Shown one piece after another: positions 32,853 through 41,617 of a stretch of 64,000 bases of DNA; position 1 is the first letter of the stretch, and each line of letters starts with the position of its first letter. The DNA is from an uncultured Gammaproteobacteria bacterium (GTDB lineage: Bacteria; Patescibacteriota; Microgenomatia; Levybacterales; GWA1-39-11). The translations under genes were made by a program, and so were the position numbers. The notes beneath the pieces were generated by a model. The model did not search any database. It saw nothing but the letters and a program-made list of their open reading frames with translations, and was not told where the DNA came from. Where the stretch lies: positions 17,867 to 81,866 of the forward strand of contig CAYVAJ010000003.1 in NCBI GenBank assembly GCA_964448725.1, read 5' to 3'.

Positions 32853-32896
32853 AGATTGACGATTGACCAGTGATGAATGATGATTTAAAGCATTCA

Positions 32897-32929
32897 ATAG
32901 GCAATAATCAATACTAAATAGTCAATAAA
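32897..32929 (+). repeat. leader motif A copy (rplD)
   Basis: AATAGGCAATAATCAATACTAAATAGTCAATAAA 3 nt before the ATG; GATTGACGATTGACC directly after the rplC stop; no SD. Confidence 0.8.
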
Positions 32930-32932
32930 ATT

Positions 32933-33742
32933 ATGGCTGAAGAAGTAAAGAAAAAAACAACTAAAAAAGTAGCAGAAACGAGTAAAGAAAAAACAGTTAA
33001 AACAACAAAAGCGCCTGCTGTAAAGAAAAAAGAGAATAAAGAAGCAGAACTTCGTATTGGTGTTGTTGATGTTACTGGAAAAGCTGCAGGTACAATTGAG
33101 CTGCCGATTGAGATTTTTGGGGCAAAAGTAAATCCAATACTTATGGCACAAGCTGTTCGAGTATATCTAGCAAATCAAAGACAGGGAACAGTGCGCACAC
33201 AGACTCGTAGTGATGTGAATGCGTCTAAACGCAAAATTTATCGACAAAAAGGTACTGGTCGTGCACGTCACGGTGCGTTATCTGCACCTCTTTTTATCGG
33301 AGGAGGCACCACATTTGGTCCCAAACCTCGTGATTTTTCGCTCAAAATGTCTGCAAAAATGCGTAGAGCTGCACTTTTTAGTGCATTGACTCAAAAAGTT
33401 GCAAATAAAGAACTAGTTGTACTTGATACTGCAAATGAAATATCTGGAAAAACAAAAGAAATATTTGGGGCACTCAAAGCACTGAATATGGTAAATAAAA
33501 AAGGGAAAGGTAACAAGGTTCTTTTTGTTACAGATAATGCAGAACTTGTTAAAAAAGCAGCACGAAATATAGAGGGAGTAAACATAGTTAATGTTTCAAC
33601 GCTCACTACGTATACAGTATTAAATCATCGAAATATTTTATTAGTAAAAGGAGCAGTTGGAAAAATGGAAGAAGTATATCTTAAAAACGTTAAAAGTGAG
33701 AATTCAAAAGTCAAAAATGGAGATAAAAATACAAAAGTTTAA
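32933..33742 (+). CDS. rplD: 50S ribosomal protein L4 with K-rich N-terminal and C-terminal extensions
   Basis: L4 core (YRQKGTGRARHGA...PLFIGGGTTFGPKPRD). Confidence 0.9.
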   Translation: MAEEVKKKTTKKVAETSKEKTVKTTKAPAVKKKENKEAELRIGVVDVTGKAAGTIELPIEIFGAKVNPILMAQAVRVYLANQRQGTVRTQTRSDVNASKRKIYRQKGTGRARHGALSAPLFIGGGTTFGPKPRDFSLKMSAKMRRAALFSALTQKVANKELVVLDTANEISGKTKEIFGALKALNMVNKKGKGNKVLFVTDNAELVKKAARNIEGVNIVNVSTLTTYTVLNHRNILLVKGAVGKMEEVYLKNVKSENSKVKNGDKNTKV

Positions 33743-33758
33743 AAAATGAATTAAAACA

Positions 33759-34058
33759 ATGAAAACAGTACATGACATTATAAAAAAACCTATTATTAGC
33801 GAAAAATCTTTTGCAGAGGCAAGTCGTGGTCGATATACTTTTGTGGTTGATCAATTTGCAAATAAGACTGAAATTGGTCATGCAGTTGAAAAAATGTTCA
33901 ATGTAAAGGTAGTTGATGTTGCAACAAATATTGTGAAAGGATCACGGACCCGATTTACTAAAAAAGGACGTAATGAACAAAATCTTACGTATAAAAAAGC
34001 ACGTGTACAGCTTGCTAAAGATCAAAAAATAGATATTTTTGAGGAGGTAAAAGAATAA
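33759..34058 (+). CDS. rplW: 50S ribosomal protein L23
   Basis: KPIISEKS...YTFVVD... L23 signature. Confidence 0.9.
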
Positions 34059-34059
34059 A

Positions 34060-34803
34060 ATGAAAAAATTACATACATTATTAAAGAAACATGGTGGTCG
34101 TGATGGAAGCGGACAAGTATCAGTCAGACATCAAGGCGGACGTCATAAGCGATTTTATCGTATGATCGATTTTAAGCGAAATAAGTTTGATGTGGTTGGA
34201 ACTGTTGCTGCTATTGAATATGATCCTAATAGATCAGTGGATATTGCATTAGTACAGTATATAGATGGAGATAAACGATATATTCTCTGTCCTGTAGGAC
34301 TCAAAGTTGGAGACAAAGTAATAGCTGGTGAGAGAGTGGAAGTACGGACTGGAAATGCAATGCCATTAATGAATATGCCAGTTGGGAGTTTAATTCATAA
34401 CCTTGAATTAACACGAGGACGAGGTGGACAAATCGTTCGTGCTGCTGGAAACCAGGCAATCATCCAGTCACGGGAAGAAGATTATGTACAAGTTAAGTTG
34501 CCGAGTGGTGAGGTACGCAAGATAAACGGAAAAAATTATGCTACAATTGGCCAGCTTGGCAATGTTGAGCGAAAAGATCGCGTACTTGGAAAAGCTGGAG
34601 CAAATAGACGAATGGGAAAACGGCCAACTGTTCGTGGTGTGGCAATGAATCCTCGCTCACATCCACATGGTGGAGGAGAAGGACGATCAGGAATTGGTAT
34701 GCCATCACCAAAGACATATGCAGGAAAATTAGCAGTTGGTAAAACCCGAAGACCAAAGAAATATTCTGATAAGTATATTGTAAAGAGAAGGGGAACAAAA
34801 TAA
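34060..34803 (+). CDS. rplB: 50S ribosomal protein L2 (N-terminally ~28 aa shorter than E. coli L2)
   Basis: [29 protein letters not shown]...; GAGGAGG RBS lies inside the rplW 3' end. Confidence 0.92.
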
Positions 34804-34805
34804 TT

Positions 34806-35090
34806 ATGGCACGATCAAGTAAAAAAGGACCATTAATAGATGAACGGCTCATGAAAAAAGTGAGCGCACAAAAAGAGTCAGGAAACCGTGACGGTATTAA
34901 AACCTGGTCTCGAGCATGCCAGATTCCGCCAGAATTTGTCGGACATACCTTTTTGATACATAACGGAAAACATTTTATATCTGTTCGTATTACCGAAGGA
35001 ATGGTAGGGCATAGACTTGGTGAATTTGCACCAACACGACACTTTAAAGGTCACGGTCGTATTGTTGCTCGTGAAATAAGTAAGACATAA
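34806..35090 (+). CDS. rpsS: 30S ribosomal protein S19
   Basis: MARSSKKGP...[35 protein letters not shown]. Confidence 0.95.
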
Positions 35091-35166
35091 AGAATTATTG
35101 ATAACTTATTATTTGCATCTGACAATAATAAAGAATTGATTATAGACAATAAATAATAAGTAATAA

Positions 35167-39635: not shown

Positions 39636-39640
39636 ATATT

Positions 39641-40183
39641 ATGTCAAATATCGGAAAACAACCAGTAACAATTACAGCAGGAGTACAAGTCACGATTGAT
39701 GGACGAAATACAGTGATTACCGGACCAAAAGGAACGCTTGAACAGCGGATTCCTATGGGAATCACAATTGAGCAAACAGACGGACAATTAATTGTTAAAA
39801 AAGTACGTGATAGTCGTGAAGTTGAAAAATTTTATGGATTAACCAGAGCTTTGCTTGCAAATATGGTAACTGGTGTAACTGACGGTTTTACTAAACAACT
39901 AGAGTTACACGGAGTTGGTTATCGTGCAAAAGTAGAAGGACAGGATCTGGTATTAAATGTTGGATTTGCTCATCCAGTACGTATTACTCCTCCTGAGGGA
40001 GTAACTTTTACGGTTACTGATAATAATATTTATGTGTCAGGAATTAATAAAGCTCTTGTAGGCGATATTGCAAGTAAAATCCGAAAAGTTCGTCCGCCGG
40101 ATCCTTATAAATCCAAAGGAATCCGATACACAGGTGAGAAATTAAAGAAAAAAGCAGGAAAATCAGCAAAAGCTGGAAAGTAG
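39641..40183 (+). CDS. rplF: 50S ribosomal protein L6
   Basis: MSNIGKQPVTIT.GV.VTIDG..TVITGPKGTL two-domain L6. Confidence 0.95.
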   Translation: MSNIGKQPVTITAGVQVTIDGRNTVITGPKGTLEQRIPMGITIEQTDGQLIVKKVRDSREVEKFYGLTRALLANMVTGVTDGFTKQLELHGVGYRAKVEGQDLVLNVGFAHPVRITPPEGVTFTVTDNNIYVSGINKALVGDIASKIRKVRPPDPYKSKGIRYTGEKLKKKAGKSAKAGK

Positions 40184-40261
40184 TAGAAAGGAAATAAGCG
40201 AAAAGTTTAAAGATAATAAAAATAATTTTACACTTTACACTTTAAGCTTTGCATTTGAAAT

Positions 40262-40621
40262 ATGAGTGAATTACTAACAAAACAAGAAAGACGAATAAGA
40301 CGCATTAATAGAGTGCGAAGTAAATTATTGGAGAATGGAGGAAAATTGCGGATTTCAGTTTTTGCATCAAATAAGCATCTCTATGCACAGATCATTGATG
40401 ATGCAAAGGGTGTAACTCTCGTTAGTGTTTCTGCATCAGAAGTAAAAGCTGTAAAAGGATCAAAATCAGATATTGCAGCAAGTCTTGGAACATTGCTTGC
40501 TCAAAAAGCACAAAGTGCAAAAATAGGTAATAATTTGGTTTTTGATAAAGGTAGATACAAATATCATGGACGTGTAAAAGCATTTGCAGATGCAGCACGT
40601 GCAGGAGGGCTTAAGTTCTAG
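40262..40621 (+). CDS. rplR: 50S ribosomal protein L18
   Basis: RRIRRINRVRSKL...LRISVFASNKHLYAQIID.... Confidence 0.93.
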   Translation: MSELLTKQERRIRRINRVRSKLLENGGKLRISVFASNKHLYAQIIDDAKGVTLVSVSASEVKAVKGSKSDIAASLGTLLAQKAQSAKIGNNLVFDKGRYKYHGRVKAFADAARAGGLKF

Positions 40622-40653
40622 GTGTATAATAAATAGCTAGGAGTATAATTTAT

Positions 40654-41112
40654 ATGGATAATAATCAATCAAAATACGAAGAAAGAATAGTACAAATTAA
40701 CCGGGTTTCAAAGAAAACCAAAGGTGGAAATAAGGTGAGATTTGCTGCTTTGGTTGTTGTAGGAGACAAGCAAGGTAAAGTTGGAGTGGGACTTGGAAAA
40801 TCAGCAGATGTAGCAAGTGCAATTATTAAAGCAGTTGCATATGCAAAAAATAGACTTATTGATGTACCGATTGTGAATGAAACTATTCCTCATAAGATTC
40901 AAATTAAAGAGGGAGCTGCAGTTATTATGTTAAAACCTGCACCACAAGGAACTGGTATTATCGCAGGTGGAGCTGTGAGAAGTGTAGTAGAAGCAGCAGG
41001 AATCCGAAATATTTCATCCAAAATACTTGGAACATCTAATAAAGCAAGTAATGTATATGCAACATTTGAAGCATTGCGAGCACTTGCAAAACAAAATGGA
41101 GGAATAAAATAA
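40654..41112 (+). CDS. rpsE: 30S ribosomal protein S5
   Basis: RIVQINRVSKKTKGGNKVRFAALVVVGD..GKVGVGLGKS... Confidence 0.95.
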   Translation: MDNNQSKYEERIVQINRVSKKTKGGNKVRFAALVVVGDKQGKVGVGLGKSADVASAIIKAVAYAKNRLIDVPIVNETIPHKIQIKEGAAVIMLKPAPQGTGIIAGGAVRSVVEAAGIRNISSKILGTSNKASNVYATFEALRALAKQNGGIK

Positions 41113-41540
41113 TGGAATTACATAAAAGTCCAAAATTAATTGCAGCAAGTGATAAACGGCTTGGTCGTGGTCATGGGTCAGGGCGAGGAAAGACATCTGG
41201 TCGTGGAACCAAAGGACAAAAAGCACGAGGAGCTATTAGCTTATCATTTGAAGGTGGAGCACTCCCGCTTATCAAACGTATGCCTTTTCTGAGAGGAAAA
41301 GGGCGAAATAGTGGAATTAAAGTACCAGCGGTTGAGATTACATTATCAGACTTAGATAAATTGCAAGCAAAGAGTACAGTAACCAAAGATTTTCTTATAG
41401 AAAAAGGCGTTATTGAAAAAAATACAAAGCGCGTCAAAGTTATTGCAACAGGAACAATTGAAACAGCGGTAACAGTACAGATACCTGCTTCAAAAGGTGC
41501 TATTGCAGCAATTGAAAAAGCAGGCGGAAAAGTAGAATAG
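41112..41540 (+). CDS. rplO: 50S ribosomal protein L15 (follows S5 directly; no L30 gene)
   Basis: LGRGHGSGRGKTSGRGTKGQKARG signature; start overlaps the rpsE stop (TAATG). Confidence 0.93.
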   Translation: MELHKSPKLIAASDKRLGRGHGSGRGKTSGRGTKGQKARGAISLSFEGGALPLIKRMPFLRGKGRNSGIKVPAVEITLSDLDKLQAKSTVTKDFLIEKGVIEKNTKRVKVIATGTIETAVTVQIPASKGAIAAIEKAGGKVE

Positions 41541-41578
41541 ATTGGTGATTGACTAGTTATAATTGACGATTAAACTGT

Positions 41579-41612
41579 AATAGTCAATAATCAATAATAA
41601 ATAGTCAATAAA
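41579..41612 (+). repeat. leader motif A copy (secY), 34/34 identical to 35666..35699
   Basis: AATAGTCAATAATCAATAATAAATAGTCAATAAA; preceded by TTGACTAG..TTGACGATT elements after the rplO stop. Confidence 0.9.
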
Positions 41613-41617
41613 AATAT

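Follow-up and report, generated by a model that had tools for sequence, protein, structure and literature searches.

The short tandemly repeated repetitive (STRR) sequences of cyanobacteria are "usually made up of 7 bp repeats" and can fold into hairpins where they separate co-transcribed genes (hupS and hupL, for example); an influence on the stability of transcripts or on translational coupling has been proposed for them (PMC2670836). In a second described system, arrays of the heptamer TAACTGA stand a few nucleotides (nt) 5' of start codons, mostly of genes that have no Shine-Dalgarno (SD) sequence, and some of them are found at internal junctions of ribosomal protein (r-protein) operons; these arrays are known from Beggiatoaceae, some Cyanobacteria and Bacteroidetes (MacGregor 2015, PMC4679880). 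Heptanucleotides are also described as the commonest unit of long simple sequence repeats in prokaryotes, in the account of Mrazek et al. 2007 that is given in PMC4679880. Here we describe motif A, a two-part sequence of 64-80 nt built of heptamers that stands at five gene junctions of the S10-spc-alpha ribosomal superoperon in a 64-kb stretch of contig CAYVAJ010000003.1 (the window, by which we mean the whole stretch of DNA analysed). Judged by its sequence, the host of the window is a member of Ca. Levybacteria, which belongs to the candidate phyla radiation (CPR)/Patescibacteria; in the best genome match to the window, r-protein L14 is 98% identical and the remaining r-proteins just 75-95%. 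CPR genomes are small and streamlined, and few bacterial gene clusters are as conserved or as closely packed as the S10-spc-alpha superoperon. No report of heptamer repeats of this kind in CPR genomes was found in the literature searched.

The comparisons below show that motif A belongs to a class of inserts that is widespread yet patchy in Ca. Levybacteria, with families and sets of occupied junctions that are particular to each genome. Motif A itself is young and species-specific and is not a conserved regulatory element. It is probably best understood as a species-specific, STRR-like family of heptamer-array repeats that is copied between junctions and tolerated there. In our reading the insert is in essence selfish or neutral, and its effect on translation, if any, is no more than modulatory.

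The window carries the complete superoperon on its + strand (tuf, rpsJ, rplC … rplQ, rplM, rpsI). Gene identities were taken from Pfam matches and from tblastn to relatives, with one set of Pfam checks covering L3, L22, L36, S8, L24, L15 and S10 and a second, made on the gene calls, covering L4, L23, L2, S19, S3, L16, L29, L5, S14, L6, L18, S5, SecY, S17 and L14. An earlier reading of the same DNA, made from the letters alone (the sequence-only reading), had reported one composite sequence at the rplC-rplD, rplV-rpsC, rpmJ-rplE, rpsH-rplF and rplO-secY junctions, and all five copies are present where it placed them. Copy 1 (rplC-rplD, 32853-32932, + strand as for all inserts below) has the box TGACGATTGA at 32857-32866 and a start-proximal block at 32896-32929, with the ATG 3 nt further on; its stop-proximal heptamers are of the form TGAyGAw, and it matches the motif A profile at an nhmmer E of 4e-18. 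Copy 2 (rplV-rpsC, 35626-35705; box 35629-35638, block 35666-35699) consists of 11 heptamers in register, from TGACGAA through to the ATG: TGACGAA TGACTAA TGACGAG TAATGAA TGATCAC TCAATAG TCAATAA TCAATAA TAAATAG TCAATAA AGAATCT ATG. Copy 3 (rpmJ-rplE, 38287-38352; box 38295-38304, block at about 38313-38347) is short and the most divergent, matching the motif A profile at an E of 1.6e-9, while copy 4 (rpsH-rplF, 39577-39640; box 39585-39594, block 39602-39635) is another short form. Copy 5 (rplO-secY, 41541-41617) has two boxes, at 41546-41555 and 41564-41573, and a block at 41579-41612.

The two parts of the composite are not equally regular in their placement. The box, which had been described as following the upstream stop codon immediately, does lie 3-8 nt 3' of it in four copies; in the secY copy the distance is 23 nt. 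The block (consensus AATAGTCAATAATCAATAATAAATAGTCAATAAA) ends 3-6 nt 5' of the ATG in all five copies, just as the sequence-only reading had it, and the identity of the rpsC and secY copies over 34 of 34 nt (35666-35699 and 41579-41612) was likewise correct on checking. In the window, the box sequence TGACGATTGA has 16 matches at one mismatch or fewer against 5.2 expected, and a core 12-mer, AATAGTCAATAA, has 14 against 1.08 expected, a number reached by none of 100 shuffles. The copies are built wholly of 7-nt units, TGACGAT-type 3' of the stop codon and TCAATAA-type 5' of the start codon, and the variant units follow one another in the same order at five places. Each of the two arms is, imperfectly, the reverse complement of the other (TGAyGAw/TTGAC stop-proximal, TCAATAA/GTCAA start-proximal), and the final 30 nt of each copy contain only 1-2 G and 16-18 A. 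A sixth, degenerate insert of the same type, which had been overlooked, occupies the rpsS-rplV junction (35091-35184); its 5' arm is of the TTATTGA type and its 3' arm of the AATAATA type, and its 3' end is 80% identical to copy 2.

An assembly artefact could be ruled out as the source of the repetition, because seven independent short-read assemblies agree. Logan contigs from seven different runs hold the junctions at 99.8-100% identity with the motif A sequence unchanged: the sequence of copy 1 recurs in contig L088, copy 3 is confirmed in L087, and contigs L084, L085 and L086 are identical at copy 4. Some contigs end exactly at the 31-mer shared between copies (L089 and L090 at 35670) or begin there (L082 and L083 at 41583), as expected of a true intragenomic repeat.

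The feature that ties motif A to the systems described above is its period, which had also escaped notice in the sequence-only reading. Autocorrelation over the motif A spacers gives z-scores of 11.6, 8.2 and 6.5 at lags of 7, 14 and 21 nt, and Tandem Repeats Finder reports a period of 7 at 32894, 35629, 35664, 39602 and 41579, thus in both halves of the rpsC copy. The period is general to the intergenic DNA of the window (z 6-8 at lags of 7, 14 and 21, and no other period), persists when motif A is taken out (z 6.0, 5.1 and 5.1), and gives way to period 3 alone in coding DNA. When lags of 4 to 11 were compared, arrays at lag 7 were found in 11 spacers and arrays at each other lag in none or one. 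These lag-7 arrays are almost all non-coding; all 8 strict arrays of the window and all of its 11 array-bearing spacers are intergenic.

If motif A were a conserved element of the operon, it should recur at the orthologous junctions of the nearest relatives, and it does not. None of the three closest genomes (L001-L003) has motif A at the five junctions, which either measure -1 to +60 nt or are occupied by an insert of another kind. The orthologous junctions are thus contiguous or unrelated in these nearest relatives, an outcome that the sequence-only reading had itself named as a refutation, and one of these genomes (L001) has a family of its own, of CTAATTn/AATTAGn units, at rplC-rplD, rpsH-rplF and rpsQ-rplN. 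A profile of motif A finds this species' copies, two elements in the relative L009 and one unrelated contig only; the two matches in L009 are full-length but weak (E of 0.002 and 0.009) and stand at other junctions. In alignment, a TTGACnATTGACC box and a AAATAGTCAATA block are common to the window, L009 and L011. These results bear out the suggestion that the element is a dispersed miniature repeat, being multi-copy in its genome, absent from the orthologous junctions of its closest relatives and nearly species-limited in its profile.

The class as a whole behaves in the same way. A matrix of junctions by genomes shows period-7 inserts at different junctions from genome to genome, with L005, L010, L014 and L017 almost clean of them and the window, L009, L011, L015 and L018 heavily occupied. 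Several of these genomes have multi-copy families of their own (GGATTAG…CTAAGAA in L011, nnGCTAn in L018, TCTCAAA…TTTGAGA in L015). Of 18 testable Levybacteria loci, 7 have a strong lag-7 signal, and other Levybacteria loci are without it; among some 47 loci from other lineages that could be tested, the one exception to its absence is an Anaerolineales metagenome-assembled genome (MAG; L031, z 14.3). Turnover also reaches below the species: in a strain whose flanks are 99.8% identical to the window (L085), 57 nt of the rplF-rplR insert, which belongs to a sister family (motif C), are missing, leaving a residual spacer TAGAAGCTTAATATTTGAAAT at 984-1004 in place of 40184-40261 of the window, and the rplF stop codon differs as well. 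Copies are thus gained or lost fast: the nearest species are without the element, and strains of almost identical sequence differ in a sister family.

The arrays of the Anaerolineales MAG (JALWJZ010000112.1; e.g. 7629-7759 and 10219-10453) are GC-rich, consist of GGCTAAC and GCGGATA units in opposed arms, and precede normal GGAGG SD sites; this is the sole control locus outside Levybacteria with a strong period 7. Further afield, a metagenome scan for ATCAATAMTAAATAGTCAATAAA returned a single match, on an unrelated contig, and the source genome is therefore absent from that metagenome collection. In contig L081 (Ga0102926_1138120, 902-947), a 29-mer matches motif A without a difference (TCAATAATCAATAATAAATAGTCAATAAA) and overlaps the stop codon of a DUF4249 lipoprotein gene; the contig is GC-richer, the 29-mer adjoins an array of CGAATTAA with a period of 8 nt, and from the lipoprotein gene we take the contig to be putatively Bacteroidota-like. 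A viral origin was considered and rejected: 31 isolated 17-mer matches occur in viral contigs, and these are taken as chance matches because none extends past the seed.

How might such a family arise and persist? The composite of about 65-80 nt would be copied from junction to junction within the genome, which could happen by ectopic recombination, gene conversion or a transposition-like process, and local slippage would then reshape the arrays. The indel in L085 shows microhomology of at most 1-2 nt, and where the secY copy has ATTGACTA...TAGTCAAT, a candidate pair of terminal inverted repeats, this belongs to the symmetry of the arms and is found in no other way. Once inserted, the element would be co-transcribed with the operon, and its persistence at junctions that had been tight may reflect low harm, i.e. 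neutrality or tolerance. Stop triplets spaced at 7 nt would shut two or three reading frames within about 30 nt, and the start-proximal 25-30 nt, being G-poor, A-rich and largely unpaired in predicted folds, would resemble the leaders of most genes here and so allow the downstream cistron to initiate independently. Early stop codons together with a typical A-rich leader without an SD sequence would do little harm, which is why the element would be tolerated.

The anatomy of the class, computed on 58 period-7 inserts from 15 Levybacteria loci (the window included), is consistent with this account. Stop codons in all three frames occur within the first 30 nt of 31 of the 58 inserts versus 10 of 60 non-periodic spacers; among the motif A copies, three frames are closed in three and two frames in the rpmJ-rplE and rpsH-rplF copies. 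The leader is not exceptional in this genome either. An SD-like site is found at about 16 of the 88 genes of the window, leaving about 82% without one. The observation that genes behind motif A have no SD sequence holds (0 of 5 have a match) and is therefore not distinctive of them. Predicted accessibility of the start site is also alike, at 0.56 for motif A genes and 0.57 for neighbouring genes.

Folding raises the question whether the inserts act as structured RNA. The arms of the 58 inserts are imperfect reverse complements, and the inserts as a class fold better than their shuffled versions (mean z -2.5; 36 of 58 below -2), with the helix starting at a median of 3 nt after the stop codon and ending at a median of 10.5 nt before the start codon. 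Such a hairpin between cistrons might be a cleavage site of RNase III or RNase Y, or might block 3' exonucleases, and would then divide the polycistronic mRNA into segments that differ in stability. REP elements and the RNase III sites of phage T7 are precedents for transcript segmentation and stability. This genome does encode RNase Y, and an effect on transcript stability or translational coupling is what the STRR literature suggests (PMC2670836). We nevertheless regard a role in mRNA processing or stability as improbable. The hairpins of motif A itself are weak (z -0.35 to -3.2 against dinucleotide shuffles, the secY copy having the best of the five at z -3.2), and the pairing register differs from copy to copy. 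Non-periodic spacers fold just as well as period-7 inserts. In addition, 9 of 11 inserts of this genome, among them all five copies of motif A, have a poorer predicted fold on the sense than on the antisense strand, and no strand preference was found across the 58 inserts; the symmetry therefore looks like a property of the DNA and not like selected mRNA structure.

Some of our observations weigh against a neutral, copied repeat and have to be set beside those that favour it. Arrays are concentrated in the superoperon, where 9 of 31 junctions hold one, as against 2 of the 56 other junctions of the window (11-fold; Fisher p=0.0012). The A-rich arm is the start-proximal one in 41 of the 58 inserts, and the start-proximal half is the better conserved between paralogous copies in 7 of 7 pairs of motif A and in 29 of 35 pairs overall (0.86 vs 0.76). 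This enrichment, orientation and conservation hint at selection. Motif A is also identical (100%) in all strains sampled and is thus not hypervariable at the scale of strains, comparisons of filled with empty junctions revealed no consistent target-site duplication or terminal repeats, and no transposase or RAYT-type gene is found among the window open reading frames (ORFs) that were scanned by Pfam or homology. Finally, this genome was examined over the 64 kb of the window, and our copy counts and distribution apply to the window.

The first three of these points would be explained if motif A were a selected translation module, that is, a G-poor, A/U-rich leader without an SD sequence that provides ribosome standby or an S1-type enhancer and lets highly expressed r-protein cistrons initiate on their own, and tunably, in place of stop-start coupling. 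The (CAA)n leader omega of tobacco mosaic virus is a comparable leader. The block, which ends 3-6 nt before every ATG, is more conserved than the rest of the element (identity 0.84-1.00 versus 0.55-0.75 in the 5' half), the 3' tail is unpaired in predicted folds (8-24 nt before the AUG in motif A), SD use in the genome is low, and an equal role has been put forward for the TAACTGA arrays (MacGregor 2015, PMC4679880). No S1 gene lies in the window. We consider such a module possible and the strongest competitor, yet clearly less probable than a tolerated repeat. Position, orientation bias and start-proximal conservation fit the proposed S1 or standby leader; the nearest relatives, however, express the same genes from junctions of 0-20 nt without motif A, predicted accessibility of the start codon is not above that of other genes, and near-identical arrays lie in a convergent spacer at 19.6-19.8 kb that leads to no start codon. 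The start-proximal conservation itself is suggestive only, because the compared pairs lack independence and a high content of A raises the identity to be expected by chance. A related candidate, a split ribosome-binding site in which the hairpin would bring an upstream SD sequence close to the AUG, was rejected by inspection of fold and sequence without a dedicated computation: the helix leaves 8-24 nt unpaired, and in the best-folding copy the spacing stays at about 30 nt.

Internal promoters had been proposed from the secY copy, and the box does offer TTGACG, TTGACC or TTGACT as a -35 element with an A/T hexamer 17 nt further on as a sigma-70-type -10 element. The secY copy (TTGACG-17-AATAAT) matches the consensus in 10 of 12 positions and the rplD copy (TTGACG-17-GATGAT) in 9 of 12, and the related elements of L009 have a perfect TTGACA. 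However, three of the five copies fail a filter for + strand promoters that is itself loose, the -10 candidate is different in every copy, the rplF copy has TTGAGA, and promoter-like sites between 30 and 49 kb number 59 against 62.1 expected. Motif A also has no TATAAT box at 7-12 nt from the ATG, of the kind that is clear at other genes of the window. A promoter function is accordingly very unlikely.

Least likely of all is a binding site for an r-protein (an operator) or for another RNA- or DNA-binding protein that reads units spaced at 7 nt. Regularly spaced UCAAUAA/UAG units might suit an oligomeric binder, and S1, Csp and CsrA-type proteins have been named as candidates for heptamer arrays (MacGregor 2015, PMC4679880). 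The element does not, however, match known r-protein leaders even at E<=1: the Rfam covariance scan of 30-49 kb at that threshold gave one chance match to a small nucleolar RNA and, at the junctions, neither an r-protein leader nor any other family. The same sequence stands ahead of five different, unrelated cistrons, the orthologous junctions of relatives are without it, and the sequence of the units differs from genome to genome, which together leave little of the autoregulatory site that had been suggested.

Motif A is one of several families in this operon, a further point missing from the sequence-only reading. Motif B, an array of nnnnTAG heptamers with a GTAGCTT..AAGCTAC hairpin, has one copy at rpsQ-rplN (37376-37447) and a paralogue at rplE-rpsN (38910-38980); the two are 93% identical over 69 nt, and this identity includes the terminal codons and stop of two different genes. 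The first copy begins within the last codons of rpsQ and provides its stop codon, and rplE ends at the TAG of the second, which makes it 5 codons longer than rplE of L001. A partial 3' end of motif B, CTATACGCTAAAAAAAT, lies at rpmC-rpsQ (37021-37037) and is 100% identical to 37431-37447. Motif C, with TTTACAC units, is the rplF-rplR insert (40184-40261) already mentioned and has a second copy at infA-rpsM (45325-45420). The rpsM-rpsK junction (45811-45878) holds a heptamer-array hairpin of ATTGAGA units facing TCTCAAT units (z -3.2).

Outside the superoperon, A-like heptamer arrays occur at 19654-19845, in the spacer on which ruvA and an ABC-transporter gene converge. Units of TCAATAATAAATAATCAATA stand here at 19672-19691 and 19751-19770, as the sequence-only reading had noted for this repeat region, and are followed by (TAATAAA)n. 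The whole spacer (19542-19847, 306 nt) is full of repeats, with a 17/9-nt GTAAAGTTnATAAAGTT array ahead of these units. The cleanest heptamer array of the window is AAACCCT, repeated eight times without a mismatch at 18358-18414, which overlaps the 3' end of obg and extends into the spacer before ruvC. Its unit is complementary to TTTAGGG, the telomere unit of the plant type.

The window shows other peculiarities of gene order and expression signals. Its rpmJ (L36, 38173-38286) lies between rplX and rplE and not after infA, an order shared by L001-L016 and L018, while L020 has rpmJ after infA; no rpmD (L30) is found between rpsE and rplO. The rpsJ-rplC gap is 1.4 kb long (30548-31976; 825-894 nt in relatives) and contains an ORF without a Pfam match (30673-31332), a promoter-like TTGCAA-17-TATAAT at 31782-31810, and a strong terminator-like hairpin at 31905-31931, 45 nt upstream of rplC. 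L001 and L002 have a GC-rich hairpin followed by a T-run immediately 5' of rplC. The gap, which has no Rfam match, may be an attenuator-type leader. At many genes without an SD sequence a TATAAT-like box lies 7-12 nt 5' of the ATG (e.g. 3275, 18442, 26653, 37864, 40654, 49515 and 53592), which suggests that many mRNAs are leaderless or have very short leaders and that there are possible internal promoters before rplX and rpsE.

Two further elements lie downstream of the superoperon. A divergent bacterial class-A RNase P RNA is encoded at 61334-61679 (+ strand; full model, E 9e-17). It was missed by the default Rfam scan of the window, which at the gathering threshold returned two tRNAs only, because its 57.5 bits fall below the gathering score of 100. 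An identical sequence of 26 nt, of which the first 24 nt are a perfect palindrome (GTATCGTAGTCTAGTCTACGATAC), occurs at 50408-50433 and 50858-50883, 5' of recX and of a Trp-repressor-like gene adjoining recA, and may be an operator.

Taken at its broadest, the material might describe a cassette of stop codons, hairpin and leader without an SD sequence, actively copied and selected across phyla as a replacement for coupling in highly expressed operons, with a proposed range of Levybacteria, the Anaerolineales MAG, Cyanobacteria, Beggiatoaceae and Bacteroidota. Under this reading the 29-mer of contig L081 would hint at occasional horizontal spread. We mention this as a speculative extension that is probably wrong. 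The tolerated repeat that we favour has consequences of its own. In this superoperon, about a third or more of the junctions hold inserts of 60-95 nt that vary by species and even by strain. For annotation and assembly, such repeats break contigs and alter the ends of genes; for comparisons of r-protein operons, they mean that the repetition of a sequence within a genome need not indicate a conserved regulator. As Levybacteria comprise many small, related genomes with and without the trait, correlation with gene content and comparison of filled with empty alleles are feasible, and the role of heptanucleotide repeats and the reason for a 7-nt unit are questions that this group could address.

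How, then, does motif A compare with known repeats? With the families REP (repetitive extragenic palindrome)/BIME, ERIC, Correia and those resembling miniature inverted-repeat transposable elements (MITEs) it shares dispersal in multiple copies and presence or absence between relatives, these families being small, multi-copy, imperfectly palindromic, lineage-specific and co-transcribed between the genes of operons. Unlike motif A, however, they are not built of tandem heptamers, and here neither a RAYT or transposase gene (in the window) nor a convincing terminal inverted repeat or target-site duplication was found. A classical, non-periodic REP/MITE-like example does exist at the same kind of junctions: L004 has a palindromic repeat of about 60 nt (TATACCGACAACTCTTG…CTCTCGGTATA), and no heptamer arrays, at rpsQ-rplN, rpsM-rpsK, secY-adk and rpsJ-rplC. 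Long simple sequence repeats, with units of 5-11 nt, are similar in that heptanucleotides dominate, arrays whose unit is not a multiple of three are excluded from coding DNA, and an origin by slippage of the polymerase is proposed (Mrazek et al. 2007, as reported in PMC4679880). Slippage alone, however, fails to explain identical composites at five loci or the two-armed inversion.

The resemblance to the TAACTGA arrays is one of position, since motif A arrays too end a few nt before start sites without an SD sequence (5 of 5) and do so inside the S10-spc operon, and of sporadic phylogenetic distribution. On the other hand, a TAACTGA array simply repeats a single unit in direct orientation, whereas motif A, whose two arms differ and are in part complementary, coexists with several unrelated families in its genome; TAACTGA itself has 2 matches in the window at two mismatches or fewer against 1.0 expected, none of them in arrays.

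The closest parallel is with the STRR sequences. Both consist of 7-nt units in non-coding tandem arrays, often between co-transcribed genes, both have opposed arrays, able to form hairpins in the STRR sequences and with weak predicted hairpins in motif A, both vary between close relatives, and the function of both is unproven. The differences lie in the host, which is a member of the CPR/Patescibacteria and not a cyanobacterium, in the AT-rich units (TCAATAA, TGACGAT), in the copying of motif A as a whole, as a composite of variant units of about 65-80 nt, and in its concentration within the ribosomal superoperon. The classical STRR units, which were not searched for in the window, are CCCCAGT, TTGGTCA and CAACAGT. 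Motif A thus shares the defining properties of the heptamer repeats known from cyanobacteria and sulfur bacteria and, since its host and units differ from the classical ones, works like an STRR sequence without being one of the named STRR families.

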